Positions 1,822 through 64,000 of a stretch of DNA of 64,000 nucleotides are shown here, piece after piece. The position numbers and the translations under genes were made by a program. Position 1 is the stretch's first letter; the number at the start of each line of letters is the position of its first letter. The DNA is from an uncultured virus (IMG/VR IMGVR_UViG_3300013004_000028) (Duplodnaviria > Heunggongvirae > Uroviricota > Caudoviricetes): IMG/VR virus record IMGVR_UViG_3300013004_000028; one strand, 5' to 3'. Below the pieces are notes generated by a model. It saw only the letters and a program-made list of their open reading frames with translations, searched no databases and was not told the DNA's origin.

Positions 1822-1893
1822 TTTAACGAATCTTTCATATCCAAATAATTGCCGAGTTATTGACCATTAAATTAAAGATATAGTTTCTATACA

Positions 1894-4146: not shown

Positions 4147-4155
4147 TTTAATATA

Positions 4156-23662: not shown

Positions 23663-24079
23663 TTATTTAATAATATGAGAACCAAAAACACTCTCTATCC
23701 ATTTTTCTTTTAAGGGCATATTCTTTTCATAGATTTCGATTACTTCAAATCCATTCTTTTCAAGAAGATGCTCTTTCAGAACATCTCTATAAACCTGTTT
23801 CTCAAAATCTTCAACTGAATTTTGAAAATAAGGAGTATATTCTACATGAAATAATCCGTTTACTTCTACAGCTATTTTTCTTGAGAAATTCATCAGATCA
23901 ACTCTCAAGCGAGTCTGAGGCAACAGGACCTCCTCTCCAACCACATCATCCTTCCAATATTTTTTAAAGAATTGTTTTACATTAAACTGGAAAAAACTAA
24001 GACTATCGCCATTCCATTTTATTGCATATTTTTTCTCAGATAATGGTCGGATATTATCCTTTGCCGTTATCCATTTCAT
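23663..24079 (-). CDS. Vsr/DUF559-like PD-(D/E)XK endonuclease
   Basis: E...RVDL...IAVEVNGLFH...D..KE..L..NG pattern. Confidence 0.7.
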   Translation of the reverse strand: MKWITAKDNIRPLSEKKYAIKWNGDSLSFFQFNVKQFFKKYWKDDVVGEEVLLPQTRLRVDLMNFSRKIAVEVNGLFHVEYTPYFQNSVEDFEKQVYRDVLKEHLLEKNGFEVIEIYEKNMPLKEKWIESVFGSHIIK

Positions 24080-26623: not shown

Positions 26624-27259
26624 TTAAAGATTGAAAGATTTTAGAGAAAATTCAAAGGGATTACCTTCGATACTCTTTACTAAGTTTAACATTTTAAGAG
26701 CTATGATTCGAGTTTCTTCTTGAGTGTCAGGCTTTAGTCTTAAATTCCAAAAATTAAGAAAAGAAAGTAACGATCCTGTCCAGATAAATTGAGTTTCTAG
26801 ACACAAAGGTAAAATTGCTCTAGCTTGTTCCTTAGCAACTCCGGCCTCACAAAGTTCCTTATAAAGTAAAGAGGATTGCTTGACAAAGTTAGAAATTTTT
26901 TCTAATAATTCTGGGTTATCAATTTCACCTTCACTGCCCTGTTTAGATGACTTAGACTGTTTTCTCAGTTTCTCTATTGTAAAATAATTATCACTGAAAT
27001 CAACATATCTACCACTTATACTATTTGCAGACATTCCAACCTGATGTTTGAAAAGCTGTCTCTCTACAAAAATAGGACACTCTATTCTAAATTGTAATTG
27101 AGGATGTCTGAAAGGAGCGACATGTTTATGTTCAACAAGAAAATTTATTAGTTTTCCATCTTTTTCATCAAAGACATTTTTATATTTTCCATAGCTAACT
27201 CTAGCAGCATTGGCGATCATTAGGTCGTTTCCAAAATAATTTAATAATTCAGCTTTCAT
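26624..27259 (-). CDS. thyX: Flavin-dependent thymidylate synthase
   Basis: ANAARVSY, H.APF, RQLFKH...NSISGRY, KEQARAILP, LR....Q.E.R. Confidence 0.92.
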   Translation of the reverse strand: MKAELLNYFGNDLMIANAARVSYGKYKNVFDEKDGKLINFLVEHKHVAPFRHPQLQFRIECPIFVERQLFKHQVGMSANSISGRYVDFSDNYFTIEKLRKQSKSSKQGSEGEIDNPELLEKISNFVKQSSLLYKELCEAGVAKEQARAILPLCLETQFIWTGSLLSFLNFWNLRLKPDTQEETRIIALKMLNLVKSIEGNPFEFSLKSFNL

Positions 27260-27686: not shown

Positions 27687-28142
27687 TTAATTATTTTTTT
27701 TTATTTGACTTTCTAAAATAGGAGAAAGATTAGCAGGACTGTAATTTGGACCCTTTTGCCATTTACCATCCTCTCTACGAAATCCATTTGTAATTTTGGA
27801 ATCATTAGATCTGCACACTTCATTCTCAAATGGCTCAATGTCAAGTCCATAAGAACATGCCGCTCCTATAGAAACATAGTTAATATCGGCTAGAGCATCA
27901 GCCACTTCTATTAAATTGACTTCTCCTTCTATATCGTAATTAAAATCATCAATACTTATAGATTCTTCTTTATCTGACAAAGAAACTTTAACACCGCTTG
28001 CTTCAGCTAGTTCCAAAACTTCTTCTAAAAGAAGACTTATCCTTAGAACTCTAGTTAAATTGTCAGGTATAGAAGGAGAATCTGGGCAGTTTTGCCCAAT
28101 AGCTTTCATAAAATTTAATACGCTTTTTTGGAAATTCGTCAT
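27687..28142 (-). CDS. MazG-like nucleoside triphosphate pyrophosphohydrolase
   Basis: LLLEEVLEL...EVADALADINYV...V.RSNDSK...REDGK..KGPNY. Confidence 0.85.
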   Translation of the reverse strand: MTNFQKSVLNFMKAIGQNCPDSPSIPDNLTRVLRISLLLEEVLELAEASGVKVSLSDKEESISIDDFNYDIEGEVNLIEVADALADINYVSIGAACSYGLDIEPFENEVCRSNDSKITNGFRREDGKWQKGPNYSPANLSPILESQIKKNN

Positions 28143-28152
28143 AACAACGAAA

Positions 28153-28180
28153 ATACTATAACATATTTTAAAAAAGTCAA
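28153..28180 (-). promoter_or_regulatory. Sigma70-like promoter
   Basis: TTGACT-N16-TAGTAT, 10 nt upstream of the ATG at 28142. Confidence 0.5.
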
Positions 28181-29373
28181 GCTTTTTCTACTGATAGCTT
28201 TTCGATGTCAGACTTTAACATTTTATTCACAAGCTGATCAAAGTTACATTTTGGAAACCAACCCAAATCTTTTCTAGCTAATGAGCTGTCTCCTAATAAA
28301 GTTTCTACTTCAGCTGGTCTATAAAACTTTTTATTGATAATTACTAAAGTTTTTTTAATGCCATTTATACAAGCTACTAATTTTTCATCTTCAGGATTAT
28401 TTGTTTCATTTTCCCATGAGCAATCTAATTTAATATAATTGAAAGATTTTTCTACAAACTCTCTAATAGAATGTGTTTCATTAGAAGAGAAAACATATTC
28501 ATTGGGAATACCTGAATAATCTTTATTATAAATATCTTGATTTAACATTCTCCATACCCCATCCATGAAATCTTCAGCATCGCTCCAGTCTCTTTTGGCA
28601 TCTATATTTCCTAATTCTAAAGGAGAAAAGTCTAAAGAGTTATCTATACAATATTTTATAGAAGAAACTTTTTTAGATATTTTTCTAGTGACAAATTCTT
28701 CACCTCTTCTCGTTCCTTCATGATTAAATAGCCAGCCTTGAATAGCATAAAGATTATAAGATTCTCTATAAACTTTTACAAGCTGTCTAGAAGCTGCCTT
28801 ACTTGCTCCGTAAGGACTTCTAGGGCGTAAGGGATGAACCTCATCTTGAGGAAAATATAAAACATTACCGAATTCTTCAGAAGATCCAGCTTGATATAAA
28901 CGACAAGTAGGTTTATATAATCTGATAGCTTCCAATATATCAAGAACAGCTGTAGAATTAGTCTGCCATGTTTGCCTAGCAAAATCCCAACTACTAGCAA
29001 CAAAACTTTGAGCAGCAAAATTGATAAAATAATCAGGAAGTAGTTTTTCTACAATCCTAGAAATAGCATGAGGATCAGTCAAATCAAAATTAATGAGATG
29101 AAATCTATCTGATTTTACATGTTTAATATTTTCATGATTATAAACACTTAATCTTCTCACTCCTCCAAAAATTAAAAAATCTGTATTGTCAAGTAAATAG
29201 TCAACCATATGACTTCCATCTTGACCAGTAACGCCTGTTATTATTACACAGGGCTTACCATTGCGTATATTAACAGCTTCATCTATATTTAATATATTAG
29301 ATGTGTCTATCTTTTTGCCATAATAAGTTTCTTGTAAATTCTCACTCATTTTAATAAATTTTAAGATTCGCAA
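28177..29373 (-). CDS. gmd: GDP-mannose 4,6-dehydratase
   Basis: ITGVTGQDGS, AAQSFV..SW, YQAGSSEEFG, PRSPYGASK, LFNHE..RRG..FVTRK, LGN.DAKRDW, RPAEV..L.GD. The true start may be MSENL at about 29349. Confidence 0.95.
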   Translation of the reverse strand: MRILKFIKMSENLQETYYGKKIDTSNILNIDEAVNIRNGKPCVIITGVTGQDGSHMVDYLLDNTDFLIFGGVRRLSVYNHENIKHVKSDRFHLINFDLTDPHAISRIVEKLLPDYFINFAAQSFVASSWDFARQTWQTNSTAVLDILEAIRLYKPTCRLYQAGSSEEFGNVLYFPQDEVHPLRPRSPYGASKAASRQLVKVYRESYNLYAIQGWLFNHEGTRRGEEFVTRKISKKVSSIKYCIDNSLDFSPLELGNIDAKRDWSDAEDFMDGVWRMLNQDIYNKDYSGIPNEYVFSSNETHSIREFVEKSFNYIKLDCSWENETNNPEDEKLVACINGIKKTLVIINKKFYRPAEVETLLGDSSLARKDLGWFPKCNFDQLVNKMLKSDIEKLSVEKA

Positions 29374-32394: not shown

Positions 32395-33012
32395 CTAAAT
32401 ATTTACAGAAATTTCTGGAGTTAATTTTAAAGAAAAAATTGGCAATCCTATATGGCTAGTAATACCTAAATCCAAAGCTTCTTTAGCATTTAAATACCAA
32501 TCTAAATCTTTTCTTTTATTTAATTCTTTTTTAAGCCATTCTTTATTTTTAGGGCCTTTTAAATGAGAAGAGATTACTTTAAGTATTTCTTCCTCCTCTT
32601 TCATTAAAGCATTAAAAAATTCTTTTTGCTCACTAGCTCTTCCATCTGGGATAGAAGAAACCTGAATACCATGCAGCATTAAACCTGCATATTCTCCCAT
32701 GAAACGAAAACCTTCATCCCCGAAACAGAAGACAAAAGCTCCAGCAGAGGAAGCTTCACCAGCCGTCATTGTAGCAATCTTTAAACCTTTTTTCCTAGCA
32801 GAATAAAGGATAGAAAGAATAGCTTTTAAAGATGAGATATCTCCTCCGGGAGACTCAATATGGATAGGAAAAAGTATTTGCTCCAGTTCTATGGCTTCAT
32901 TGATTCTATTACTTAAAGCTTTTACAGTTGTTGAAGAAAATTCTGTTAAGTAAAAACTTCTAGGCCCGTTTATTCCTTGAACAAAGTTTGGAGCATTTAT
33001 ATCCCATTTCAT
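32395..33012 (-). CDS. ClpP-like serine protease
   Basis: IESPGG, GEASSAG (catalytic Ser), LMLHG (His), DWYLNAKEALDLG. Confidence 0.85.
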   Translation of the reverse strand: MKWDINAPNFVQGINGPRSFYLTEFSSTTVKALSNRINEAIELEQILFPIHIESPGGDISSLKAILSILYSARKKGLKIATMTAGEASSAGAFVFCFGDEGFRFMGEYAGLMLHGIQVSSIPDGRASEQKEFFNALMKEEEEILKVISSHLKGPKNKEWLKKELNKRKDLDWYLNAKEALDLGITSHIGLPIFSLKLTPEISVNI

Positions 33013-34082
33013 ATTTTTGATAATAGTGTATCTACAGTATTTTGTACACTGAATACACTAGGAAGAGTTGATATAGTTTTTTCGCCAGAATTAAAAAATT
33101 CAACGGCTTCCAAAATTTTATCTTCTACTTCTTTATCATCAAAATCAAACATGTTCCCTTGATTAACTATATTACCTAATTTGAAAAAGGCATCATCATA
33201 AATAGGAATTTTCTGAGAAGGTTTTACAATAATAGCATTACCATTGTTAATAAAATCAGAATGAGCATGAGCATCCATTGCTACACAAACCTTGTTAAGA
33301 GAAAGCATATTAAACAAAGGAAGATTAAATCCTTCTGCGCCGGAAAGACCGGAAAGATCAATATCACAAGAATTCATTAGTTTGTTTACTTCTGAATTTT
33401 TATCTTGACGAGATATTAGATTAACATTCCAAGGAATAGATCCCTCAAAGATTTGATTCAAAATTTGTTCCCATTTTTCTCTCTCTATAAAAGGGTTATC
33501 TATTAAGCAATTTAATCTATATCTTTTATCATTACCGAAAAGCTTCTTCCATATTCTGATTATCTTTTCTGTATGTTTTCTTTTTTCAAATTTTCCAATA
33601 AGCAAAAAGTTAATAGCATCAACTCTTGGAACAAGAGGATCAGCTTTTACATGAATAGAATCAAAATAAGGATGGCAGACTCCTACATTTTCTAGACCTT
33701 CAGATTTAGCAACCTCATAAGAATAATTACTAGAAAACAATACCAAGTCATTATTTTTAATAATATTTTTTTCAACTTTAGTTAAAGTATCCGTTTCATG
33801 GAATGTCCATAAAATAGTTTTATCAGACAAACGTCTTTCAGATTCAATTAAATGCCAAAGTCTAATCGTAGGAAATTTACGAGAAAAATTGGCATGAGCT
33901 TTTTGACAACAGAATTGGAGCCAATCAAAAAATGGTTTATCAATATCGTAGGCTTTTAAATCTACTTGCCCGATAGGAAATATATTAGGAAGGAATTTTC
34001 TATCGAAAAACTCTTTCAATAATCCAAATGATACTTGACCAAAAGATAATCCATTAATTGGAACTTCTAAATTTATATTCAT
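33009..34082 (-). CDS. GT4-like glycosyltransferase
   Basis: GKFEKRK, SGAEGFNLP, AHSDF. Confidence 0.75.
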   Translation of the reverse strand: MNINLEVPINGLSFGQVSFGLLKEFFDRKFLPNIFPIGQVDLKAYDIDKPFFDWLQFCCQKAHANFSRKFPTIRLWHLIESERRLSDKTILWTFHETDTLTKVEKNIIKNNDLVLFSSNYSYEVAKSEGLENVGVCHPYFDSIHVKADPLVPRVDAINFLLIGKFEKRKHTEKIIRIWKKLFGNDKRYRLNCLIDNPFIEREKWEQILNQIFEGSIPWNVNLISRQDKNSEVNKLMNSCDIDLSGLSGAEGFNLPLFNMLSLNKVCVAMDAHAHSDFINNGNAIIVKPSQKIPIYDDAFFKLGNIVNQGNMFDFDDKEVEDKILEAVEFFNSGEKTISTLPSVFSVQNTVDTLLSKI

Positions 34083-34443: not shown

Positions 34444-34746
34444 TTAATTTTCCCTATGCTGGAAAGAAGTCAAAAAAAGATTATTTATGATAGTAGCAAC
34501 TATAGGACAATAAATAAAATTATTAATATCAAAACAAAGACAATACCAAAAAGTTAAACAAAAAATACAACCCATCAAATATCTAACTTTTCTGCATAGA
34601 TATCCTAGAATATTTTTACTCCCACCTTTTATATCTAAATATCTATACGCTATTGATCTTGGATAATCAAATATAGGAGCGAAGTTTAATAGAAAAAATA
34701 TGAATACACAAGCTGTAGCCGTTTTTAAAATTTCGATTATTTCCAT
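34444..34746 (-). CDS. Small membrane protein with a CxxC..FW motif
   Basis: Hydrophobic segments and LMGCIFCLTFW. Confidence 0.55.
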   Translation of the reverse strand: MEIIEILKTATACVFIFFLLNFAPIFDYPRSIAYRYLDIKGGSKNILGYLCRKVRYLMGCIFCLTFWYCLCFDINNFIYCPIVATIINNLFLTSFQHREN

Positions 34747-35087
34747 TTCTTTAAATCATTTAAGTCTTCTCTTCCTATTTCTTCAAAGTGAATAATTGCC
34801 ATCAAGTTAAATATTACAGCTGCAAGATGGTCTTCGTCTCTATCTCCTTTCCAATATTGCATTAAATGTCTAAATGCACTGGCAAAGAATCTTGAGAATG
34901 GCATCCCTTTTTCCCAATTCCATTCACCATATTTAACAGCTCCTCTTTCCATCAAAGAAGCTAATCTTGTCATCATAAAAGGAGAGATTAAATCGAATCT
35001 TGGTTTTCCTTCTTGAGTATCTCTTTTAGCTCCAGATTCAAAACTTTGTCTAGCTCCACTATCTTTTGTTTTAAAATTCATACTCAT
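34737..35087 (-). CDS. DUF5664-like dATP/dGTP diphosphohydrolase domain protein
   Basis: SGAKRD..GKPRFDLI, GAVKYG..NWEKG, RH, EDHLAA..FN. Confidence 0.8.
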   Translation of the reverse strand: MSMNFKTKDSGARQSFESGAKRDTQEGKPRFDLISPFMMTRLASLMERGAVKYGEWNWEKGMPFSRFFASAFRHLMQYWKGDRDEDHLAAVIFNLMAIIHFEEIGREDLNDLKKWK

Positions 35088-51767: not shown

Positions 51768-54700
51768 CTAACCTGTTGTTGCTGGAGGCGCTTTGGTAGG
51801 AGGAGCAGCTGGAGGCGGTTTCCCCGCTGCACTAGCCACTTCTCTATTATGCTGTTCAACCATACCTATAATAGATGGTTTTAATTTTTCTATCATTTCA
51901 GGTGTAATCCCTTCTCCTGTTATATTCACACTTATCTGAGATGTAGTATTTACATTCGTAGTATTTACAACTCCTTGAGCACCTTGAGCGTTTTGACCTT
52001 CAGCTGCACCTTCTGTCGCGGCTCCTTGAGCATTAGTAAGTCCAGTCACAGCATCTACAAGAGGTTTTATAACTGCTCCTAGTTTATTCTCTTCCTCTTT
52101 TGTTTGAGCTATTTGTTTTTCTATTTGAGCTTTTTTACTCTTTTCATCTTTTACGTTTCCAACATTATTTAAATCTTCAAAAGTTTGACCTTCTTTTTTT
52201 GGTATAACTTTATTATAAGCATTTTTCAAAGCTCCACCTGTTTGTTCATCGGCCTCCTCTGCTGTAACCTCTCCTCGTATAAACTTATTAATGAAATCTG
52301 ATTTTTTTCCGTCATTATCCGGCCCCATATCAGCCATTGCTTCAAAGCCTACTTTACTTCTATCTCTTCTTTTCGCCTCTATATCTGCTATATTTTTATT
52401 TATAGGATCTAACTGAGCTTCTTGATCTTGTCTCTCTACAACTTTAGCATTATAAGCTTGAACTTTTTTCTTGTCTTCTGGTTTTTGTATTTGATCCATG
52501 ATAACAGGAGCTACTTGACCTTTAAATAGTTCATTGTTTATAGCTCCCATGTTCTGATCTGTAGCCCGAGCTACATCTTCAGTACCTTTTTTTACTTCAC
52601 CTCTTAATTGGGTTTCTTTTTCAGTATTTTTAGCTTTAGCCTGTAGCTCTTTCATTCTCTCTCTTTTCACTATATCCAAACCATCTTGTGGATCTGCTAA
52701 TATTTTTGTATCAGTCGCTTCTCTTGATTCTAATTCAGTTTTTCTAGCAATCTGTCCTTCACTAAGAGGCCCCATACGATCTAACTCCCTTAAATCTTGA
52801 AGCTCTAATTTATTGTCTTTAGCTTCTTTTCTAGTGTCTAATGTTTTTGCATCTGTAGCCTCTGTTAATTCTAATTGTTCTTTTCTTTTTTTATCACTAT
52901 CAGTAAGAGTTCCGTAAGGCTCTTTAGCTCTTAAAATATTAAGTTCTTTTCTATTACTTTCAGCTTTATCAAAACTTCTAGTTTCATCTTCAAGACCAGT
53001 AAGTTCTGTTTTTTCGTCTGCTGTAAGAGTTTTTCCTTTAAGAGAATCTAACTCAGTTTTCTTTTTATCTAATTTTTCTATTTTTGCAGCTACACCTTGT
53101 AAATTTTTATCTTTGCTACCTTTCAATTTAGCTACATAAGAAGCTCTTACTTTAGCAGGATCTTTAGCATCAGCTTTCTTTTGGGCCTCAGCTATCAATT
53201 GATCTTCTGATAAAGTTTTTTCATCTGTTTCTATTCCTTTTCTTAAGTCCGCTATTTTACCTTTAGGATCTAGTCTTGCTTTAAATTCTCCAAGTTTTTT
53301 CTTTTTATCTCGTATATCTTTAGGGTTTACTCCTTTCCATGGTTCGAAATCCGAATAACTTGTTAGCTCCATATCAGCTGAAGATGTAGCCTCTAGTTCC
53401 GCCTTTCTTTTTTGTGATTGTTCGGAAAGATTAGGTATCTTATTCAATGCTTCTAGTTCTTTTATATTACTGACAGATTTATCGTAAGCTGTAGTTTCTT
53501 TTTCTAAACTGGTAAATTGATTTGCTTCATCAGCAGAAAGCGGATTAACTTTCTCAAGAGATTTGATTTCATCTTTTTTAGCTTGTATTCCTTTTTTTAA
53601 TTCTTCTGGATCTCTTGGTGGTCCGACTCCTCTTCTAGATTGCAATAATTCAAGATAACCTTTTGGATCTGCCATTTGAGCTTGAGCAGTAACACTTTTT
53701 ATTTTATTATCAAGATCAATTTCTTTTTTAGCAGCCATATTAGCTTTCAAAGACTCTTCTTCTTTTTTTCTTTCTTCTGGTGTTAATGGAGTTAATTGCT
53801 CTTTTCCATCCTTTCCTTTCCTCATCACTCCGTTTTTAAGGTAATCTTGATTCTTTTTTATATTTTCGTCTATTTGCGCAGCATCTTGTAAAGGAGCTGT
53901 TCCTCTTTGTTTCTCTAAAGATTTTAAATATTGAACCGGATCTTCAGCCAATCCAGCTTTTACTCTTGCTGTTTCAGATTTATTTTTTATTCTAGCCGCA
54001 GTATTTTCAGCTTTATCTGATTTAAAACCGGCTAACTGTTCTTGTGCTTTTTTTACTTCCTCGGGAGACATTTTAACTCTTTCGATTTTTCCATCTTTAC
54101 CTTGTACCTGTCTCCCTTCTCTCAAGTCTTCCTCAACTCTTTGAATTCTCTCATCATCTTTTTTACCATCTCCTAAAACTTTTGCTGTCTCTTCTAATCC
54201 CTGAAGTCTTTTTACATTTATATCTGTTTCTTGAGGAGTTTTACTTTTTGTTTTAGCTGGTAATACAGCATCTTGAGTTAAAAATTTAGAACTTTCAGTA
54301 TTGTAACTTTCAGCAGCAGATATAGCGGCATCTATTCTTTCTCTCTTCGCGGCTAAAGTGGTATCAGATCTTTCTATTTCTTTTTCAAAATTTCGACCCG
54401 CATCTTTTTTTCTTTTAGTTAAATTACTTATCTGATTATCCTCCAGAGTAGTATCTAAACCCTGTTTAGCTTTTGCATCTTTTTTAGCTTGAGCCTCTTT
54501 AATTCTTTTTTCCACTGATACCTCATCCTCTTTAAAAGAGAATCCAGAGCTTTCTACTTGTGAAATATAAGCATTTCTAGCTGAGATTTCTTCTCTCGAT
54601 CTATCGTTTCCTCCTTCATCCATTAGAGTAGATGCTTTTAAATTTTCAAAATCAGTTTCTGTAGCTTTTCCGCTTTTCATCCTTTCTTGAAAACTTACTA

Positions 54701-57700
54701 GATCATCCATTACAAAATCTTGTTTAAGTGTGGCAGCTGTACCAGTATTTATTGTTCTCTGGTAATTTAAAGGAGTTTTTATTTTTTCAACAGCTTTTTG
54801 ATTATCTATAATTCTTTGTGGTTCACCTGCCTCTGCTACACTTCTTTCTTGTCTAAGCTGTACGTTTTTCGCTTTTTCAGCTTCAAAACTTTTATAATCT
54901 TGTGTTTGAGTTACCGCAGCTGATCTTCTTAATATATCAGCTTGTTCTGACCCTCTACCAGTTAATGATTTTGCAGTTATATTAGCTGTCGAGCTTGCAT
55001 AATTAGGCATAGCGGCGGAGCTAGGATTCATTGATGTGTTAGTTGCTGCAACACCACTACTAGGAACAGTTGTAACACCAGCTCCAGCTACGCTAGGAAC
55101 CGTTGGAACACTGGCTCCAGCTACGCTAGGAACAGTTGTAACGCCAGCTCCAGCTACGCTAGGAACCGTTGGAACACCAGCTCCAGCTACGTTAGGAACC
55201 ACTGGGAATCCAGCTCCAGCTGCGCCTGCACTCGCAGCTATTGGAACATTTGCTCCGGCTGAAGCTGCCATTTGGTTATTATTAGCAAAAATGCTATTTA
55301 CTCCACCAACTCCTTTTATTTCTCTAGCAAAACTTTGAACAGTAGAATCTTGAAAATAAGGATTATTAAATTTTTCATCTAACATTCTTTTAGATTCATC
55401 TGCTCCTGATCCTCCTATCTGTATACCTTCTGTAATTTTTTTTATAGATGCATCGGAAAAAATACTACCTTGATTAGATTTTGCTCTAGCCTTATTTAAA
55501 TCCCTCAATTTTTGGCCTATATCATCTGCCATAGTTTTTTGCAACTGTGCTTTCCCGGATCTTTCCTCGTTAGTTCTTTTAACTACATTATCTTTGCCGT
55601 ATCTTTCAGCTTGAGCTTGTTCATCTTCATATTTAATTCTATCATTCTGCATCTCTAAATTTGATGCTTCGACTAATAATTTTCTTCCTGTTTCAGTCTC
55701 TCCTCCGCCTGATCTTTCAGCTTTATCTCTTAATTTTTGTATTTTAGCATCTGTCTCTAATACTGCCCCAGTATTCATAAGTTTTTTAGTATATTGAGGG
55801 GGACCAGCTAAAGCACTTTTACCTATCTCAGCTAAATTCCTTCTTTGAGATTCTTTTAACTGGTCTTGAGATATTGTATTTATAGATCTTAAGCCATCGG
55901 CTTGATCTATTCTTAATTTTTCTATACCTAGTACAACTTCTTGATTTATATCAGCTATTTGGGATAAGATTTCTTTTGAGCCATCTGATGATCCTAAACT
56001 TTGCTTTATAAGACCTTCTAAAGATGAAAGATCTCCCCCTCCTTTTAATACAGAACTAGCTTGATTAAGAATATTTGATCTTTGTTCTATAGAAGCATTT
56101 TTTGGAATTAATGCTGTAAGCTGCTCCACTGCTTTAGAAACTATTTCAGTGCCTTTCTTTTCAGCATCTAAATTTAAGTCTTTTGTTTGAAGACTAGCTT
56201 GTCTATTTATACCCTCAGCTTCAGTAATTCTTCCCGATGCTCTATCCGAGTCTAGTCTGCTTTTTTCTATTGATAAATTAGTTCCCGCTGTTGAAAAATT
56301 CTTATAGTTTATCAATGCTGTATCTAAAGTTAAACCTTTCAATCCTTCATCAAAAACTTTTTGGAAGTCTAAGCTAAACCCTTGTATTCCTGTTTGCACA
56401 GTGTCATTCAGATTTTTATTAAAAGTCAAAAGCGCAGCTGCATATTTATCCATACTTTGTATAGAGCTATCTGTGAATTCTTTATTTAAATCTCCATAAG
56501 TTTTACTCGCCATTTTTACTTGAGACTCAGTTAGTCCTAACTCTGAACCGAATTGAGTTATAAAATCTCCCATACTTAAAGTCCCATTCCCCAATTTATC
56601 TATAGCCTCTGAAGCTTCTTTGGATTTAACTTTAGTAAAATCTATACTATCAATAATAGGATTTAAAAATGTGTCAAAATCTTCTGTTTTGAAATCTGAA
56701 GTTTTAGTTTTGTTGCCAAAAACACTAACATTTTCTTCTCTAGATTTCTTTATTATCTCAGAAGTAACCAAATTCCCTTGACTAAAATTCAGATCTTTAC
56801 TCTTCTTTTCTTGAAAATTTGCTATAGCTTCTTGTTTTTTTAAATCACTTTTTTCATTTAATATCGTAGAAATTAATTCCGGATCTTTAATCCCTCCTAA
56901 TGATTTAGCAAATGTGGATTGAGCTTTAGCTATCTTTTTTGGATCTCCTCCTGAAGTTTTTAATTCAGAAATTTCATTTTGAGATTTAATAGCTTCTTGC
57001 AAAGAAGTAATTTGAGATTCAGTGGATTGAATTAATTTTTGGTTGTTATTAGTCAATTCCAATGTAGATGGAACAGCAGCTTTAGTAGCTTTAGTGGCAT
57101 AATTAAAAGCCCCTGCGAGAACCCCTACAATAGGGGCAATAGGAGCTAGAGCCGGAACCATAGCTACCATCATTGCGGCTGAAGCTCCAGCTGCGATAGA
57201 TTCTCCTATATTCTGAACCTCCTTTTGAGCCTTTGTTTGCTCTTTTCCTTCCTCCGGCGTTGAAAACATCCCAGTTACAGTAGAAGCAGTAAAGGCTAAT
57301 CCCATCATTTTTGCATTGATAGCTCCAGCTTTTGCTGCTCTTTTCTCTTTTTTCTCTTGTTTGAGTTCTTGCGGAGTTTTTGTTACTTTATTATCTGAAT
57401 CGGGTAGATCTCCGCCCATAGGCATTCCTCCTCCCGCAGGCATTGCTCCTTGTTTCCCCCCCCCTTGTTGACCTCCTCCTTGCAAAATTCCACCTTTCTG
57501 GTTCGCGTTTAGTTCTTTTTGTTTAGCAAAATCAGCTTTGTATTCTTTTCTTATTGAACGTGATTCATTGTTTACGCTTCGTAATCTATTAGCTTTAGCT
57601 TTTCTTGCATCTTTTTCTACTTGAAATCTGTTCTCTATTTGAGTTCTTGGAAAACTTTGCATCCCTTTTCCTGCCCCTTGTATACCTTTCGTAGGTAAAA

Positions 57701-60700
57701 TCGGAGATCCAAGCTTACCTCCGGGAGTCATAATCCCAGCTGCCACTGATCTATTGTAAAGTCTATCAGCTCTGATAGAGTCTGCTTTTCTATTCCTTTC
57801 TTCTGATCCTACAATTTGACCATCTCTATTTCTGAACAATTTGCTTTGCCCTTGTCCTCCTTTTTTAAATGTATTTTCAACACCTTTCGCTCCTACTCTT
57901 CTTTTATTAATTCTATCTTGAGTAAGATTTTTTAATATCTCTTTTCTACTTACAAACTGGTTCTGTGCTGTAAGAGTCGGCTGATATCTCCCCGGAGCTT
58001 GAGGTAGTTTAGCCATCTGCGCTTTAGCATTAGTGTAGTCAATTTTTATATTTCTCCTTTTTCTATCAGCATTAGCTTTAGCATCTCTTTTAGCTTGATC
58101 TTGAGGGGAAATGCCTGCTTTTTTGATAGGCGCAGCATTTGTGCGAGAAGCTTTTTTTTCGGCTTCAGCAGCTTTTCTTTTAGCTTGGTTTCTTTGAAAA
58201 ATTTCTCTTGTAGCTTGAAAAGATCCTCCTAAACCTGATCTTAGACTACTGGGCAAAGCAGGTCTAGCTCTTACGGCTGCTACTTTTTGTTGAGCAGCTT
58301 GAGTTTTATCTTTTTTTTCCTGATCCTTGTCTGCATTCTTTTGTTTTGCTTCATTTCTTTTCCTTATTTTCTTTAAAGCTCTTTTCTCTTTGGGAGTCGC
58401 AAAATTAGGAATGAAACCTTCAGAAGAGGAATTAGGATTTTCTCTTGAAAAGCGAGAGCTTAAATAATCATCCACAGTTGGCACTATAACGCTCAAAGCT
58501 GTTCTGAGAGAAGGTAGATTGGCTCTTTGGACTGATGTTAATAGATTTCCTGTACTATATTGAACTTGATCTAAAACTTTTTTAAAAAATTCTATTTCAT
58601 CAGAAGAAATGTCGGGAGCTCCATCTATTTGAGATATAAGAAGTGATAAAGCATTTGTAGAAGTAGGAGTATTTAGCATACTTCTAATTTTTAAAGCCAA
58701 TGGACTATTAGCCGCAGTTTTTACTTTAGAGGCTCCTTGTCTTACCCTGTTCATTAATGAGGGTCTACGAACAGGAATTTCAAAATTAGGAATAAAACCA
58801 AAAGCTGAAGTTCTGCTTACCAATCCGCTTGAACTATCTCCATAAGTTCTTTTTGTTGTAGGCTCTATTTTCGCCATTTTGGCGAAACTCATCCCCTTGG
58901 ATAAAGTCTTTTCGTCCTTGTTAAAAACTGCAAGACCTTTTGGGTTAGATTTTGTTTTTAAACTAGCTCTTCTCCCAATCTTAACATCTTTTCTTTCAAA
59001 ACCCGCACTCATTTCCGCGTTTACGGATTCATTTAAAGCTTTTCTTTCTTGTGCATAAGGAATTTTTGCAGGGGAAAGCCGAGAAAAGAAATTAGGAATA
59101 AAGCCTTTTGCAAAAGAAGTCGGTTTACCTCTCAATCCTAATCCTTGAATACTATATCCTCTACCTCTTTTTTTATTTGGATTTTTAGAACCCCTTATAT
59201 CGTCACTTTTTTCGTCAAATCTTTTCGATAGGGGAATTAAATTTCCGTCATCATCATACTCTACTAAAGCAGCTGATTTGATTTGTGAGGCATTCGGAAC
59301 AACTAGCTCAGAAGACATAGTTTTTTCTTGAAGTGTTCTTCCTGCTATTCCCCTTATTGAGTCATAGGGTATTTTACCCTCCTTCATTAAAATAGCTGTA
59401 CCTATTTTGTATTTTTCATTTTTTGCACTTCTTGATCTTAAAGTGGAAAGAAGCAATGAACGATTACTAATTTTAGCTATTTCTTCAGGACTTAAGTGGC
59501 CGTATTTGCCGAGTTTAGCGTAAGCATCATTGATAGCTATCTCATAATTGACTCTAGCATTTAAATAAGGCATAAACTCATCAGGCAAATTTCCCGTTAA
59601 AGGTTTTTGAGCTTTTACATATACTTCGTCTTTCCTAAATTGAACATCACTAGCTTTTAATCCTAATGCTTTGAGTCTGTCTTCATGTGGTTTTGAATTT
59701 ACAGATACATCTGACCCACCAATAGATAAAGAAGCATCTTCAGCAGTATAATATCCCGGACCAAAATTTAGATCTTTAATCTCTGAACGCAACGGAACCC
59801 CTTTATTATAAAAACCTAATCTAACCCCTTTTCTATTGTATGGGGAATCTTGAGCTTCTTTTTCAACCATCTTCTTCAAAAGATCTGTATTATTTTTCTC
59901 TACAGCTTCTTTATACATTTTATCTTTTTCTGAAGAGAAATCAAAAGCTGGAGTTTTACTTATTTTAGCTAAACTAGATTCAACTTTTTCTCTTCCGTAT
60001 TTTGCAATTAAGAAGTCATAAGTTTTTCTATCTATATTTCTGGCAAGATTCTTTCCAGATTTTTTATTTCCAACAACGTCTCTAAAAAATGTTTTGTCGG
60101 AAGCAAGAGAAGGAGTTGCGAAATTAGGAATAAAACCTCTTGAATTAGTTTTTTTGCTATACTCATTAACTTGATTTTTTAAATTTGGATCAATTACATT
60201 TGTATATCCGGCATCTATAATAGTAGCTTTACCTCCAGATTTAACAAACTTGTCGTATAAATCCTGACTTGATTCAGGTACTTTATAGTACTTAACATAG
60301 TCCTTAAGCAAATTATTTTTATTTTCTTCAATAAATTTTCGACCTTGAGGATTTAAAGTATAATTGGCCCCATGAAGGTCATCCATTTCCAACCCAGCTT
60401 TTTTTAATCGGGCTTGCAAAATACGCCCGAAAACTCCAGAAGCCGCTATACCAACAGAGTCACGAGCCATTGGTTCTTTAATGATCTCTTTCCGAATGCT
60501 TTTAGCTCGCAATGCTCTTTCTAAATTATCTGGAATTTTAGGTCCTGTAATTCCGTCAACTAGTCTTTTTTCAGCTAATAATTTTGATACTGTAAACTCA
60601 TCTGTTATTGTTTTTGGTAAATTAGATTCAGATTTGACGTTTGCTGTTTTTGTGTCTTTTTTTGTTTCAAATCCTGCAAAAATTCCAGCTGACGAAGAGG

Positions 60701-63700
60701 GTTTTCTATTATAAAATCTTTTTACCCCTATATCCTTAGTTAATCTATGAAATGTTCCTTCTGCTCCGCCACCCATAAAAGAAGATTGGAGTGCAAAATT
60801 AGGAATAAATCCTTCAGAAGCGGACATACCTTTAGATCTGGGATCTATACCTTCTTTTTTAGCTAAACCCATTCCATTAGCTAAAGTTCCTTCATACTTA
60901 TTATAAGTGCCAAAACCTTCTGGATTAAAAGGAGTTCTTAAAGAAGGGTTTTTACCCATTCTTATTTTTCCGATAGGTATTCCAGCTTTAGCTTCTTTGG
61001 CTCTAGATTTCTTTTTGGCATTTTGAGTTTCTTTATAAGAAAGTTTTGAAGCAAAATTAGGAATAAAACCACTTGATAAAAAACGCTCTAAACCATTTTC
61101 TCTTAGCACTTGTTCTCTAGTCTTTTTTCTTCCTCCAGTGTTTCTCGGTTTATTATATCTTGCGGACAGAATAGCTTGAACCCGATCTTCATCAGATAAA
61201 GGAGCTATTTCACTAACAGGCATATTTCTATCCTGTACATCAGTTGGTAATTGTCTTTCTGTTAGTATCTGTTGCTGAATTTTCTTATAACTGTTTGTAG
61301 TTTTCCTTGCTCTACTTCCTTGTCCTGCTAAATTAGCCGCCCATTCTTGAACTTTCCTTTCATCATCGGATAGAGGACCTGTTTCTATAGCAGGCATATC
61401 ACTGTCCGGTACACTCATCCTTTCAGGATAGGCATTCATTGTCATTCCAACTTCTTTACCCATGTTAGGTAGATCCCTCGCCCTAGTGGAGCCCTGAAAA
61501 CGTAACTTTGGAATAACTATTTTAGGAACAATTCTTTTACCATTTACTATCTGTGTTAGAGGTCCGGCATTAGTTTGTCTACGAGTTATTGGATCAATAT
61601 CATTTAAATCAGGGACAGCTATATAATTGGTTAATTTTATTCTGTCGTATTTATCTGGAACGCCTTCTGTAAAAAGGGGTAAAAGCATTGGACTTAACTC
61701 AGCTATATTTTCAGGAAGAAATCTCCCATATTTATCTCCAACTTTGGGAGCTGTCCAATCTCCAGCTTTAGCTTCAAGTAAAGAGATTTCTTTATTTTCT
61801 ATAGAATCTATTGAGAATGCATCGACTGCGTTATTGCCTTTATTAAATCCGGTGTTTCTAGTCGGAATAAATTTAGGGCCTACTTTTGTTTTATTGGCTT
61901 GCTGTATAGCGTATCTTTCAAAAACTCCAGTATAATCAGTTTGATCTACTTTGCCATCTTTTCTATTTTTATCTTTAAAGCGATAAGAATCTGGAGCAGA
62001 TTGCAAAATTGAAGACATTAAATTTCTTCTTGAGCCCCCTTTATCAGGAATCTTAACTTGAACTTGTTCAAAAGAAATTGTACTAATTTTATCATCAAAC
62101 TCAACATTTTTATTGCCTCTAGACTGAGCTAAAGCAAATTGATTCGCAGCATTTACATTATTAGGTAAAAATTGTGATATATCTATATAATCATCAGATT
62201 CATCAATTTTACTATTTAAATTAACATTCTTTTTACTCTTCGACTTAGGATTATTTATTGGTTCATCAATTATATCATCGACATAATCATCTGTTTGCAG
62301 AGCCTTGTACATCCTAGTCGCTCTATCTAATATTCTACTTCCAGAATCAGATTCTTGTATTCTCTTTCTTTGTTTCCTAAGCGCTCGTATTTCGTCGGCT
62401 TGTTCTGGAGGGGTTATATTTTTTCCAACTGTATATATTTTTGGTGGAAGCTCTCCTAGCCGTCTATTTATTTTATCAATTGCTTTATTCTTTTTTAGAG
62501 AAGTTCTTCCCATTGTTTTATCAATAAATGCGGTCCTATTTTGTATTTGAGGTAAATTAGCTATTAAAAGATCTTCTGACCCTCCCGCAGCTAATCTCCT
62601 AATTCCTTTTGTATCTCCTTCTCCAATTGCTTTTCTTAATTCAGTTCCACTTATACCCTCAGTCCTAGCGTCCTGCACCACTTGTAATCCCTTTTCTGTA
62701 TATTTTGCGGTTTCATAGAGTCCCTTATCGTCACCTACTAATGCAATACTTCCGGGAGTAGGGCTTAGATATCTTCCGTCTGACACTTTAAAAACAGAAG
62801 GTATTCTACCTCTGAATTCGGAAGACGGAATAACTGTTGTTTTGGCTCCAGTCGCTTTTTTTATTAATTGTCTTCTAAGACCTATAGGAAAAACTGAGGT
62901 ACGATAAGAATGTTTATCGCCTTCCTTAAGTGTAGCTCCAGAACTAACTCCGAATACTATATTCTCTGGTTCGAAACCTAACGAACGAGCTTGTGTAAAC
63001 ATTTCCTTATGCCCTTCCGTAAATGGGGCAAAAGCTCCATATGCGAATGCAATTTTCTTCTTTTCAATATTAAGTTGTTTTTTAATTATAGATGTTTTAT
63101 CACCTTCTCTTTGCAATCTTGCGACAGGAACACCTTTATTTTCAGCCACTGCGGCTATATAATTAGGGTCTTCAGGATTTTTTCCTACAGTTTCTAGTAA
63201 TGATTTCCCAGATCTACCTTGATTTGCTATTGGGTTATCACTAGCTGCTCTTTTTTTAGCAGACTTTATTTGATCTTCTCTGGATATTTGTAGAGAAATT
63301 AGCCTATCTACTCCTCCGAAAAGTCCTTCTTGTAAACTCCTTTCAGCATTTGACTGGGAAGCTTTTGTAGCTACGACTTCATCAACTTTGTCAATGTCTG
63401 ACTCTTGTAGAATTGGTATTCGAGTCGTTTTTCTAAATTTACTATCATCGCTCTTTTTTGGTATGCCATATTTGTCTGCATTAAATGCAAGAGAAGTTTT
63501 TCCTGACCCCGGAGCACCATAAATTCCAGTAATTCTTTTTAAACCTCCGGTTTTTCTTTTTTGCATAGCATAATTACCTAAATGCTCCCAATACTCATGC
63601 GTTTTTGAGTTGCCAAGTCTTTCCATTTCTGAATTAACTATCTGTGCGTATTCAGGATTAGCTAAAACATCGCCATCTAATATACCAACTCTTCTAGTAA

Positions 63701-64000
63701 TTTCTGCAAAATTCGGAATAAAGCCTTTGCTTGAAAAGTAAGAAGGAAGAGCCGCCGTAGAATTTTCTTGTCTTTTAATTAATGTGTATGGCTTTTCAAA
63801 AGATATAGGTTCTTTGATTTTATTTTTGAAAAATGGAAACTTTGATCTTTTATCTGTTTTTGGCAATTCTAAAGCTTTGGTTTGTAAAGCTTTTGAAACC
63901 AAATTATCTCTAGTTATTTCTCCCGCTTTAACTTCTGCTATCCCCTGCCTCTTTGAATTGATTATGTCCATTCTTGCACCTTTACCAGTTGCTAATACAG
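51768..64000 (-). CDS. Giant tape-measure-like polyvalent protein (>4067 aa, 5' end outside the window)
   Basis: The frame stays open upstream of the ATG at 63971 (...VLATGKGAR-M). It has seven GFIPNF motifs, enzyme-like cassettes, a central Ala/Gly hydrophobic segment and a long coiled-coil C-terminal half, and it precedes the tail genes. Confidence 0.8.
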   Translation of the reverse strand, partial: VLATGKGARMDIINSKRQGIAEVKAGEITRDNLVSKALQTKALELPKTDKRSKFPFFKNKIKEPISFEKPYTLIKRQENSTAALPSYFSSKGFIPNFAEITRRVGILDGDVLANPEYAQIVNSEMERLGNSKTHEYWEHLGNYAMQKRKTGGLKRITGIYGAPGSGKTSLAFNADKYGIPKKSDDSKFRKTTRIPILQESDIDKVDEVVATKASQSNAERSLQEGLFGGVDRLISLQISREDQIKSAKKRAASDNPIANQGRSGKSLLETVGKNPEDPNYIAAVAENKGVPVARLQREGDKTSIIKKQLNIEKKKIAFAYGAFAPFTEGHKEMFTQARSLGFEPENIVFGVSSGATLKEGDKHSYRTSVFPIGLRRQLIKKATGAKTTVIPSSEFRGRIPSVFKVSDGRYLSPTPGSIALVGDDKGLYETAKYTEKGLQVVQDARTEGISGTELRKAIGEGDTKGIRRLAAGGSEDLLIANLPQIQNRTAFIDKTMGRTSLKKNKAIDKINRRLGELPPKIYTVGKNITPPEQADEIRALRKQRKRIQESDSGSRILDRATRMYKALQTDDYVDDIIDEPINNPKSKSKKNVNLNSKIDESDDYIDISQFLPNNVNAANQFALAQSRGNKNVEFDDKISTISFEQVQVKIPDKGGSRRNLMSSILQSAPDSYRFKDKNRKDGKVDQTDYTGVFERYAIQQANKTKVGPKFIPTRNTGFNKGNNAVDAFSIDSIENKEISLLEAKAGDWTAPKVGDKYGRFLPENIAELSPMLLPLFTEGVPDKYDRIKLTNYIAVPDLNDIDPITRRQTNAGPLTQIVNGKRIVPKIVIPKLRFQGSTRARDLPNMGKEVGMTMNAYPERMSVPDSDMPAIETGPLSDDERKVQEWAANLAGQGSRARKTTNSYKKIQQQILTERQLPTDVQDRNMPVSEIAPLSDEDRVQAILSARYNKPRNTGGRKKTREQVLRENGLERFLSSGFIPNFASKLSYKETQNAKKKSRAKEAKAGIPIGKIRMGKNPSLRTPFNPEGFGTYNKYEGTLANGMGLAKKEGIDPRSKGMSASEGFIPNFALQSSFMGGGAEGTFHRLTKDIGVKRFYNRKPSSSAGIFAGFETKKDTKTANVKSESNLPKTITDEFTVSKLLAEKRLVDGITGPKIPDNLERALRAKSIRKEIIKEPMARDSVGIAASGVFGRILQARLKKAGLEMDDLHGANYTLNPQGRKFIEENKNNLLKDYVKYYKVPESSQDLYDKFVKSGGKATIIDAGYTNVIDPNLKNQVNEYSKKTNSRGFIPNFATPSLASDKTFFRDVVGNKKSGKNLARNIDRKTYDFLIAKYGREKVESSLAKISKTPAFDFSSEKDKMYKEAVEKNNTDLLKKMVEKEAQDSPYNRKGVRLGFYNKGVPLRSEIKDLNFGPGYYTAEDASLSIGGSDVSVNSKPHEDRLKALGLKASDVQFRKDEVYVKAQKPLTGNLPDEFMPYLNARVNYEIAINDAYAKLGKYGHLSPEEIAKISNRSLLLSTLRSRSAKNEKYKIGTAILMKEGKIPYDSIRGIAGRTLQEKTMSSELVVPNASQIKSAALVEYDDDGNLIPLSKRFDEKSDDIRGSKNPNKKRGRGYSIQGLGLRGKPTSFAKGFIPNFFSRLSPAKIPYAQERKALNESVNAEMSAGFERKDVKIGRRASLKTKSNPKGLAVFNKDEKTLSKGMSFAKMAKIEPTTKRTYGDSSSGLVSRTSAFGFIPNFEIPVRRPSLMNRVRQGASKVKTAANSPLALKIRSMLNTPTSTNALSLLISQIDGAPDISSDEIEFFKKVLDQVQYSTGNLLTSVQRANLPSLRTALSVIVPTVDDYLSSRFSRENPNSSSEGFIPNFATPKEKRALKKIRKRNEAKQKNADKDQEKKDKTQAAQQKVAAVRARPALPSSLRSGLGGSFQATREIFQRNQAKRKAAEAEKKASRTNAAPIKKAGISPQDQAKRDAKANADRKRRNIKIDYTNAKAQMAKLPQAPGRYQPTLTAQNQFVSRKEILKNLTQDRINKRRVGAKGVENTFKKGGQGQSKLFRNRDGQIVGSEERNRKADSIRADRLYNRSVAAGIMTPGGKLGSPILPTKGIQGAGKGMQSFPRTQIENRFQVEKDARKAKANRLRSVNNESRSIRKEYKADFAKQKELNANQKGGILQGGGQQGGGKQGAMPAGGGMPMGGDLPDSDNKVTKTPQELKQEKKEKRAAKAGAINAKMMGLAFTASTVTGMFSTPEEGKEQTKAQKEVQNIGESIAAGASAAMMVAMVPALAPIAPIVGVLAGAFNYATKATKAAVPSTLELTNNNQKLIQSTESQITSLQEAIKSQNEISELKTSGGDPKKIAKAQSTFAKSLGGIKDPELISTILNEKSDLKKQEAIANFQEKKSKDLNFSQGNLVTSEIIKKSREENVSVFGNKTKTSDFKTEDFDTFLNPIIDSIDFTKVKSKEASEAIDKLGNGTLSMGDFITQFGSELGLTESQVKMASKTYGDLNKEFTDSSIQSMDKYAAALLTFNKNLNDTVQTGIQGFSLDFQKVFDEGLKGLTLDTALINYKNFSTAGTNLSIEKSRLDSDRASGRITEAEGINRQASLQTKDLNLDAEKKGTEIVSKAVEQLTALIPKNASIEQRSNILNQASSVLKGGGDLSSLEGLIKQSLGSSDGSKEILSQIADINQEVVLGIEKLRIDQADGLRSINTISQDQLKESQRRNLAEIGKSALAGPPQYTKKLMNTGAVLETDAKIQKLRDKAERSGGGETETGRKLLVEASNLEMQNDRIKYEDEQAQAERYGKDNVVKRTNEERSGKAQLQKTMADDIGQKLRDLNKARAKSNQGSIFSDASIKKITEGIQIGGSGADESKRMLDEKFNNPYFQDSTVQSFAREIKGVGGVNSIFANNNQMAASAGANVPIAASAGAAGAGFPVVPNVAGAGVPTVPSVAGAGVTTVPSVAGASVPTVPSVAGAGVTTVPSSGVAATNTSMNPSSAAMPNYASSTANITAKSLTGRGSEQADILRRSAAVTQTQDYKSFEAEKAKNVQLRQERSVAEAGEPQRIIDNQKAVEKIKTPLNYQRTINTGTAATLKQDFVMDDLVSFQERMKSGKATETDFENLKASTLMDEGGNDRSREEISARNAYISQVESSGFSFKEDEVSVEKRIKEAQAKKDAKAKQGLDTTLEDNQISNLTKRKKDAGRNFEKEIERSDTTLAAKRERIDAAISAAESYNTESSKFLTQDAVLPAKTKSKTPQETDINVKRLQGLEETAKVLGDGKKDDERIQRVEEDLREGRQVQGKDGKIERVKMSPEEVKKAQEQLAGFKSDKAENTAARIKNKSETARVKAGLAEDPVQYLKSLEKQRGTAPLQDAAQIDENIKKNQDYLKNGVMRKGKDGKEQLTPLTPEERKKEEESLKANMAAKKEIDLDNKIKSVTAQAQMADPKGYLELLQSRRGVGPPRDPEELKKGIQAKKDEIKSLEKVNPLSADEANQFTSLEKETTAYDKSVSNIKELEALNKIPNLSEQSQKRKAELEATSSADMELTSYSDFEPWKGVNPKDIRDKKKKLGEFKARLDPKGKIADLRKGIETDEKTLSEDQLIAEAQKKADAKDPAKVRASYVAKLKGSKDKNLQGVAAKIEKLDKKKTELDSLKGKTLTADEKTELTGLEDETRSFDKAESNRKELNILRAKEPYGTLTDSDKKRKEQLELTEATDAKTLDTRKEAKDNKLELQDLRELDRMGPLSEGQIARKTELESREATDTKILADPQDGLDIVKRERMKELQAKAKNTEKETQLRGEVKKGTEDVARATDQNMGAINNELFKGQVAPVIMDQIQKPEDKKKVQAYNAKVVERQDQEAQLDPINKNIADIEAKRRDRSKVGFEAMADMGPDNDGKKSDFINKFIRGEVTAEEADEQTGGALKNAYNKVIPKKEGQTFEDLNNVGNVKDEKSKKAQIEKQIAQTKEEENKLGAVIKPLVDAVTGLTNAQGAATEGAAEGQNAQGAQGVVNTTNVNTTSQISVNITGEGITPEMIEKLKPSIIGMVEQHNREVASAAGKPPPAAPPTKAPPATTG
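55060..55215 (-). repeat. 33-bp tandem repeat (11-aa unit AGVPTVPSVAG / AGVTTVPSVAG)
   Basis: About 4.5 units in an alternating 66-bp higher-order pattern. Confidence 0.85.
58401..63725 (-). repeat. Seven dispersed GFIPNF-coding 18-mers
   Basis: Copies at 63708-63725, 61053-61070, 60795-60812, 60120-60137, 59088-59105, 58782-58799 and 58401-58418. Confidence 0.95.

Follow-up and report, generated by a model that had tools for sequence, protein, structure and literature searches.

Phages send proteins into the host alongside their DNA, and tape measure proteins (TMPs) carry cell-wall enzymes. MARTX and polymorphic toxins mount variable effector cassettes on a conserved scaffold, with a junction motif that is both a processing and a recombination boundary; for the polymorphic toxins, Zhang et al. 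reportedly described in 2012 the demarcation motifs VENN of CdiA and DPxGL of Rhs. TMPs themselves set tail length and aid the passage of DNA to the cytoplasm (PMC5099701). Polyvalent proteins are believed to reach the host together with the DNA, and their processing into separate activities has been proposed (PMC5512222), in a paper whose main text does not use the term "tape measure". Sle1, a TMP-related effector of contractile injection systems, contains an exchangeable functional domain that differs between species (PMC13277306). Here we analyse a stretch of 64,000 nucleotides (nt) from an uncultured virus (IMG/VR record IMGVR_UViG_3300013004_000028), called the window below, in which one giant gene encodes a TMP whose modules are separated by copies of the hexapeptide GFIPNF. 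We found that these modules are exchanged among related phages at the DNA that encodes the motif. On balance, we consider it probable that the region is a TMP cassette array of polyvalent early enzymes that would be delivered to the host, with a motif that is probably recognised.

A six-frame scan finds exactly seven copies of GFIPNF in the window, all in the frame of the minus-strand open reading frame (ORF) 51768..63998, and no further copy in any of the six frames, while 4.2e-5 copies are expected in the window protein from its residue composition. The copies differ solely at synonymous sites (GGC/GGT/GGA, TTT/TTC, CCG/CCT); the following residue is A in five of them, and position -2 is S or A in all seven. 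A preliminary description of this DNA had reported the seven copies in one ORF, the synonymous-only variation and the A that follows the motif, and our scan reproduces the counts as well as the coordinates. A QFLPNN string in the 885-residue module was considered as a decayed copy and dropped, since it aligns with a non-motif stretch in relatives. A literature search over ~8.4 million papers and preprints gave no occurrence of the GFIPNF string.

The window edge truncates the ORF, and the ATG at window position 63971 is not the true start. A word-indexed protein search returned a protein of 5,095 amino acids (aa) that is identical over the query region, and three contigs (L001-L003, the longest of 170,053 bp) match the 12,233 nt of the gene in the window with 0 mismatches. 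The full ORF (L002:7957-23244, 5,095 codons) opens with an ATG located 1,019 codons upstream of the window edge, and the part so gained adds an N-terminal TMP domain, a degenerate copy of the motif (GYIPTY) and two more exact copies, which brings the whole protein to nine exact copies and a degenerate one. The expectation that the ORF and its cassettes continue beyond the window is thus borne out. The same three copies and TMP domain, however, move the array (residues 540-2885 of 5,095) to the middle of the protein, and not to the N-terminal half where it had been placed.

The reading of this protein as a tape measure gains strong support from the upstream part. The TP901 TMP model TIGR01760 matches L002:7957-9600 with 129.7 bits against a cut-off of 28.8 (E 1.2e-37), and the N-terminal part matches 22 PHROG families, 19 of them named TMP (best E 3e-38), while a PHROG search with the window part returned 0 families. 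PF10145 is present in eight of nine scanned relatives, the ninth (P0004) being without its N-terminus. Judged by these homologies, the protein is a TP901-family TMP. After the last motif come, as had been noted, a strongly basic region (aa 1861-2160 of the part in the window, net charge about +47 over 300 aa), hydrophobic segments (aa 2231-2299, one of them at aa 2267-2299) and a long K/E-rich region with few Pro and Gly residues, which is probably helical. Five tandem copies of a 33-nt unit (84% matches) in this C-terminal region encode 11-aa VPSVAGAGVTT-like units.

The TMP is a chain of three parts, namely a conserved N-terminal domain, independently folding modules punctuated by linkers, and the C-terminal part. 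When pieces obtained by splitting the proteins at each motif are compared among relatives, the modules align from motif to motif. In the 5,095-aa TMP the order is, in aa, N-domain 539, short module 109, kinase-like 200, 262, 885, A module 86, kinase-like 225, 344, A module 102, orphan 127 and C-terminal part 2,216. AlphaFold models were obtained for the A module (52 sequences) and for the kinase-like module (10 sequences), and in both the motifs are without secondary structure. The A module has a mean predicted local distance difference test (pLDDT) score of 70.7, with a helix-strand-strand-helix core (residues 12-72) at 75-83 and the motifs at 39 and about 53; the kinase-like module has a mean of 78.5, with a core at 88-96 and the motifs at 42 (residues 1-9) and 47-50 (residues 223-234). 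With motifs at 39-53 against cores at 75-96, the models place the motif, [AS]xG[FY][IV]PNF[AS], at domain boundaries in predicted disordered linkers, and not within folds.

Several unrelated enzyme-like domains are found in this one giant polypeptide. In the kinase-like module between window copies 3 and 4, the residues G14, G16, K31, E72, D145, N150 and D200, which correspond to the Gly-rich loop, the VAIK-type Lys, the alphaC Glu, the catalytic D and N and the DxG, are invariant among 10 sequences that are 35-46% identical. Foldseek matches to its model are all kinase-like (WbdD kinase, PRPK/Bud32, Rio2, Rv3197 and APH(2''), with leading probabilities of 0.99-1.0), with E-values of only 5e-4 and TM-scores of 0.33-0.46, and the kinase-like label proposed from the sequence is well supported. 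The 885-aa module had been described as a P-loop, a nucleotidyltransferase and a nuclease. Its nucleotidyltransferase label is supported by homology, as CTP_transf_like (PF01467) scores 25.8 bits against the Pfam cut-off of 21 (E 1.3e-5) and PFTEGH corresponds to the (H/T)xGH motif; the NadR-type NMN adenylyltransferase model stays far under its cut-off (16.4 vs 341). The nuclease label is supported at motif level as PD-(D/E)xK-like: E187, D209, K233 and K247 are invariant, and D231 nearly so, in the family-wide 270-aa module (36 sequences, 23% mean identity), which nearly all basal TMPs contain, and Atlas places the nuclease segment of the window near Tox-REase-7 and Mrr_cat restriction-endonuclease clusters (0.91-0.92, taken as leads). 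The P-loop part did not fare as well and is a weak assignment (E 0.022).

For the 344-aa module, the earlier ADP-ribosyltransferase (ART)-like label is weak and serves as a lead: ART-PolyVal clusters of Atlas score 0.86-0.87, with 17-22% of the cluster members carrying PF18760, and neither Pfam nor PDB gives a match. The second A module is 40% identical to the first (E 6e-16), in agreement with the earlier reading of it as a second copy. The first short module aligns with the A module with an hhalign probability of 97.3%, but both alignments include the shared flanking motifs, and homology between the two is suggestive only. The 262-aa module (P0002 849-1110) is 54% identical to a module of relative P0003. 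PDB sequence searches gave no meaningful match for the kinase-like, nuclease-like, P-loop/nucleotidyltransferase and ART-like modules, and at E<=1e-3 no stand-alone homologues were found for the kinase-like (120-384 aa) or ART-like (185-592 aa) modules. Relatives carry GNAT, HATPase_c and PcfJ-like modules, while most of 67 representative modules scanned are without any Pfam match. The invariance of catalytic residues in the kinase-like and nuclease-like modules, across sequences that are 23-47% identical, indicates selection on catalysis.

The idea that the motif is also a recombination junction proved to be the best-supported part of the preliminary description, with breakpoints that fall on the motif at nucleotide resolution. 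Module content and order vary among relatives. Between L038 and L056, two loci with ~99-100% DNA identity across the array, the difference is one exact indel of 678 nt (226 codons), bounded by two GYVPNF copies with 17 of 18 nt in common. Likewise, in L023 and L024, which are 91-100% identical over the N-terminal domain and array, two GFIPNF copies bound an exact indel of 483 nt (161 codons), and L057 and L061 differ by a 990-nt indel of two cassettes that ends at a motif. Replacement is seen between L066 and L077, where identity rises from 0.61 to 0.92 at the interval that contains the start of one motif, stays at 0.90-1.00 through a 576-aa cassette and drops from 0.97 to 0.44 just past the next motif, beyond which the two loci carry unrelated cassettes. 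Modules of the window also have their best matches in different relatives, with the 86-aa A module 91% identical to P0006, the 885-aa module 59% to P0003 and P0004 and the 344-aa module 80% to P0005 (the only two copies known), while the N-domain identity of these relatives is 76-82%. These motif-bounded indels and identity steps show that the 18-27 nt encoding the motif are a working recombination junction, that is, a crossover site for the insertion, deletion and replacement of cassettes. Recent tandem duplications were of no use for mapping breakpoints within a protein, as paralogous modules are only 33-51% identical.

No extended DNA repeats surround the motif, the identity of the flanks being 0.35 against 0.31 for random in-frame pairs. 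Codon variation under a constant peptide, together with dissimilar flanks, indicates that the repeat is kept as a peptide. Codon usage at the motif is nevertheless skewed in the 68 TMP genes described below, with Pro encoded by CCT in 74% vs 37% ORF-wide, Ile by ATT in 67% vs 51%, and Val GTA depleted; in the window phage, Ile is ATT in nine of nine exact copies vs 39% ORF-wide.

Repeated motifs of the type G[FY][IV]PNF turned out to characterise a large uncultured family, with up to 14 copies in a protein. Among 10 database relatives (2,758-5,017 aa), G[FY][IV]PN[FY] occurs in 5-11 copies with variable spacing in nine and is absent from one (P0009). A scan of viral contigs gave 544 pattern matches, of which 243 encode relatives, and 78 loci were kept (L001-L078), corresponding to 68 unique ORFs of 1,339-5,097 aa, some of them truncated where the contig stops. 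In these loci we counted 370 copies of the motif in the TMP frame and 0 in other frames or ORFs across 0.92 Mb of their flanks, so that it is a family-wide feature exclusive to TMPs. Its consensus from 267 distinct instances is [A/K/S][A/S]xG[F/Y/H/L][I/V]PN[F/Y][A/S], and the residues beyond carry no information. A family search with a profile of the A module that includes the two flanking motifs retrieved, from clusters at 50% identity, 1,226 representatives with E<=1e-3, 928 of them with E<=1e-10. The 150 matches listed are almost all 2,000-5,354 aa long, and of the 121 listed with 1,700 aa or more, 120 have 3-14 motifs (mode 4-5) and the remaining protein has one; shuffled proteins have 0.012 copies each.

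The commonest architecture, which we regard as basal, consists of an N-domain of ~540 aa, a short module of ~83 aa, one module of ~270 aa, an A module of ~75 aa and the C-terminal part, and it carries four motifs even where a TMP has just one large module. Of 199 giant TMPs, 193 contain the A module, with up to nine repeats in some relatives, and the 961 inner segments of these 199 TMPs group into 186 families, 113 of them singletons. In some relatives the motif and A-like modules bracket coiled-coil segments of 790 and 1,300 aa, also near the C-terminus. The suggestion that the motif marks effector cassettes does not hold in its original form, since the motif is basal to the whole TMP family and flanks coiled coils as well. 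A 483-aa database protein (P0015) carries three tandem A-like domains flanked by a variant junction, DIPNLA, in place of GFIPNF. Cultured phages match the N-terminal domain only, at ~25% identity, and none of 135 records covers 80% of the query.

The TMP would leave the tail ahead of the DNA, and in this sense we infer that the array is a polyvalent set of early-acting enzymes for the host. The near-invariance of six residues across TMPs whose N-domains are ~25-35% identical points to one conserved trans-acting factor, and recognition of the peptide by a single such factor seems most likely from the sequences. By analogy with viral polyproteins, MARTX toxins and the processing proposed for polyvalent proteins, we tentatively favour the possibility that the motif is the site of a processing protease, which would release the modules after tail assembly or on ejection. 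Several observations weigh against this picture of delivered enzymes. No protease domain was found in the TMP or its conserved neighbours, with no peptidase families among the Pfam/NCBIfam matches to the window pieces or the Pfam matches to the 67 representative modules from relatives; the trypsin-like protease invoked in the preliminary description was not seen among the window ORFs scanned. The A domain lacks fold matches (Foldseek best E 1.2, VIA best Z 3.2), the ART-like and P-loop assignments are weak, and cultured phages show no DNA or protein match to the array. The bracketing of coiled-coil segments suggests a role for the motif that is not tied to enzymes. Finally, folded modules from three or six chains may not fit in the lumen of the tail tube, and such a misfit would favour their removal before virion completion over delivery.

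Alternatively, the motif may be a docking site that stays uncleaved, with a chaperone recruited at each module boundary and the modules remaining tethered. This full scenario is possible, and a docking-site role is nearly as likely as a processing site. The partner could be a phage tail-assembly chaperone, a host folding factor or a parvulin-type peptidyl-prolyl isomerase (PPIase; SurA P1-like), and docking would leave the modules soluble or unfolded, or else act as a ratchet that draws the chain from the tail. The location of the motif in disordered linkers and beside non-enzymatic coiled-coil segments is consistent with docking, as are two acidic helical proteins conserved just upstream of the TMP in 54-58 of the 68 TMP loci. 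The P1 domain of SurA binds WEYIPNV with a Kd of 1-14 uM (PMC7195389), a peptide that has YIPN in common with G[FY]IPN[FY]; however, the likeness comprises four residues and may be a coincidence. Genome injection by HK97 requires the periplasmic chaperone FkpA besides host PtsG (PMC5099701), which fits docking, but enzymes that depend on ATP, NAD or acetyl-CoA would work in the cytoplasm and not in the periplasm, and in monomer models the motif is not docked on the adjacent A domain. It is also conceivable, although we find it rather doubtful, that the motif is a dual-level element, at once an integron-like crossover site in DNA and a peptide signal for a protease or a PPIase-type chaperone during threading into the host, in which case each enzyme would be released or handed over as the chain enters the host before the genome.

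A structural role in the tail, where the motif would pack on the tube lumen or zip TMP chains into register, with modules as beads that add length or plug the tube and enzyme signatures as a secondary matter, might account for a motif that is exclusive to TMPs, is part of the basal architecture even where just one large module is present and accompanies an A domain present up to nine times. We consider this unlikely, because the kinase-like and nuclease-like modules keep their catalytic residues unchanged in the divergent sequences mentioned above, the rapid turnover of modules, with its 113 singleton families, is unlike a structural ruler, and the closest giant TMP from a cultured phage, that of Bacillus phage Tsamsa with 3,123 aa, has 0 copies of the motif. 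The mapping of breakpoints to the motif and its codon skew would also agree with a repeat kept purely as a DNA-level recombination signal, with a functionless peptide. This is very improbable: synonymous sites vary while the six residues are near-invariant, the residues that alternate (I/V and F/Y/H) are conservative replacements in the protein, and there is no nucleotide conservation past the coding core.

The features of the window are collected in Table 1. Five large ORFs lie downstream of the TMP, and neither these nor the conserved acidic helical proteins upstream have a Pfam or PHROG name. On contig L002, collagen-repeat tail-fibre-like and Laminin_G_3 (concanavalin-like) proteins are encoded at 153-2187, upstream of the block of tail tube and TMP. 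A conserved gene upstream of the TMP, of ~336 aa in relatives, is broken here into two frames by a T5A9 run (L002 about 7049-7063, identical in L001-L003), which may be either a site of slippage or a homopolymer error. The remainder of the window is a phage module for replication and nucleotide metabolism, with a split DnaE, DnaB, primase, ribonucleotide reductase, ThyX and a ClpP-like protease, the DnaE-type polymerase being divided over three ORFs. The genes for a dATP/dGTP diphosphohydrolase N-terminal domain (PF18909, E 2.6e-23), a MazG-like pyrophosphohydrolase, ThyX and dCMP deaminase form a nucleotide-pool editing set, possibly a sign of a genome with modified bases; the window showed no PurZ-like gene. 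Sugar genes are spread over four intervals and comprise GT10, GT11, two GT25 and two GT1-type glycosyltransferases, a GDP-mannose 4,6-dehydratase and a HAD-hydrolase/NTP-transferase fusion. An HNH/homing-endonuclease-like ORF (PHROG 559, E 2.8e-8) sits downstream of the DnaB-like helicase gene, between this and the UvsX-like recombinase gene. The DNA polymerase of this uncultured, AT-rich phage shares no more than 33% identity with that of any cultured phage, and three loci were found in prokaryote genomes, all in metagenome-assembled bins.

Table 1. Positions of the TMP gene, its motifs and modules, and other features in the 64,000-nt window.
Feature	Position	Strand	Basis or remark
TMP gene, C-terminal 4,076 codons and stop	51768..64000	-	5' end beyond window
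End (last 91 residues) of 262-aa module starting beyond window	63726..63998	-	P0002 segment 849-1110
GFIPNF copy 1 of window (copy 4 of whole protein)	63708..63725	-	six-frame scan
885-aa composite module	61071..63707	-	P-loop, HIGH nucleotidyltransferase, PD-(D/E)xK-like nuclease
Walker A P-loop in 885-aa module	63495-63518	-	Pfam AAA_17, weak, E 0.022
HIGH-motif nucleotidyltransferase, PFTEGH	63009-63026	-	Pfam CTP_transf_like
PD-(D/E)xK-like nuclease motifs	E 61905-61928, D 61809-61829, ExK 61761-61781	-	FERYAI, VDAFSI, LLEAKAG
GFIPNF copy 2	61053..61070	-	six-frame scan
Short A module, first copy, 86 aa with motif	60813..61052	-	small alpha/beta domain (predicted)
GFIPNF copy 3	60795..60812	-	six-frame scan
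Protein-kinase-like module	60138..60794	-	G-loop 60750-60773, VAIK-type Lys 60714-60731
Kinase-like module, catalytic motifs	DLHGxN 60360-60380, IIDxG 60204-60221	-	conserved residues
GFIPNF copy 4	60120..60137	-	six-frame scan
344-aa module, weakly ART-like	59106..60119	-	Atlas scores
GFIPNF copy 5	59088..59105	-	six-frame scan
Short A module, second copy, 102 aa with motif	58800..59087	-	homology to first copy
GFIPNF copy 6	58782..58799	-	six-frame scan
127-aa orphan module	58419..58781	-	no match among relatives or in Pfam
GFIPNF copy 7, last of protein	58401..58418	-	six-frame scan
Strongly basic region	57519..58400	-	net charge
Hydrophobic segments	57102..57308	-	candidate membrane-inserting part of TMP
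Long K/E-rich C-terminal region	51771..57101	-	homologous to C-terminal parts of relatives
33-nt x5 tandem repeat	55060-55225	-	in TMP C-terminal region
dATP/dGTP diphosphohydrolase N-terminal domain	34737-35087	-	PF18909
MazG-like pyrophosphohydrolase	27687-28142	-	
ThyX	26624-27259	-	
dCMP deaminase	7725-8123	-	
HNH/homing-endonuclease-like ORF	23663-24079	-	PHROG 559
DnaE-type polymerase, PHP	18364-19125	-	
DnaE-type polymerase, DnaQ-like exonuclease	17514-18134	-	
DnaE-type polymerase, Pol III alpha core	14940-17510	-	
Sugar genes	445-6383, 11797-13488, 28177-29373, 33009-34082	-	

In the literature searched, we did not find multi-cassette TMP arrays, the invariant junction peptide, the A domain or exchange at the junction at nucleotide level. 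The finding of up to 13 exchangeable modules on one tape measure, separated by one invariant peptide, provides a handle for retrieving cassettes from metagenomes, for testing the passage of proteins through a phage tail and for building tape measures with chosen cargo in laboratory phages. Given the size of the family (1,226) and at least 186 module families, most of them without known relatives, these TMPs are a reservoir of candidate early-acting enzymes for host takeover or counter-defence.

The array resembles the polyvalent proteins known from phages and conjugative elements (Iyer et al. 2017, PMC5512222) in being a giant chain of unrelated enzyme domains, which in their case include ART, GNAT, nuclease and kinase domains. 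As described there, polyvalent proteins are tied to head or conjugative delivery and contain zincin-like metallopeptidase (MPTase) domains for self-processing, whereas the carrier here is a TMP in which we found no peptidase domain, and its domains are set apart by an invariant junction peptide. With TP901-1-family TMPs (PF10145, TIGR01760), the protein shares the N-terminal domain, hydrophobic segments, a probably helical long C-terminal part and a gene that probably lies within a tail module; it differs from them in its 5,095 aa, with ~2,340 aa of putatively globular cassettes inserted after the N-terminal domain, and neither its GF[IV]PNF punctuation nor the A domain was found in TMPs of cultured phages. 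The 225-aa module has the predicted fold and the catalytic motifs of the atypical kinases Bud32/PRPK and Rio, from which it departs in its 11-18% identity, in a minimal 190-aa core with an inserted, predictedly disordered loop and in being known only inside TMPs. Effectors of the Sle1 type (PMC13277306) have a single functional domain in an actinobacterial nanomachine, with no repeated junction motif in the description consulted, while the present protein is a multi-cassette phage TMP. MARTX and polymorphic toxins, finally, are secreted bacterial proteins with one junction or an internal cysteine protease, whereas here the cassettes are carried by a phage tail protein with up to 14 junctions.

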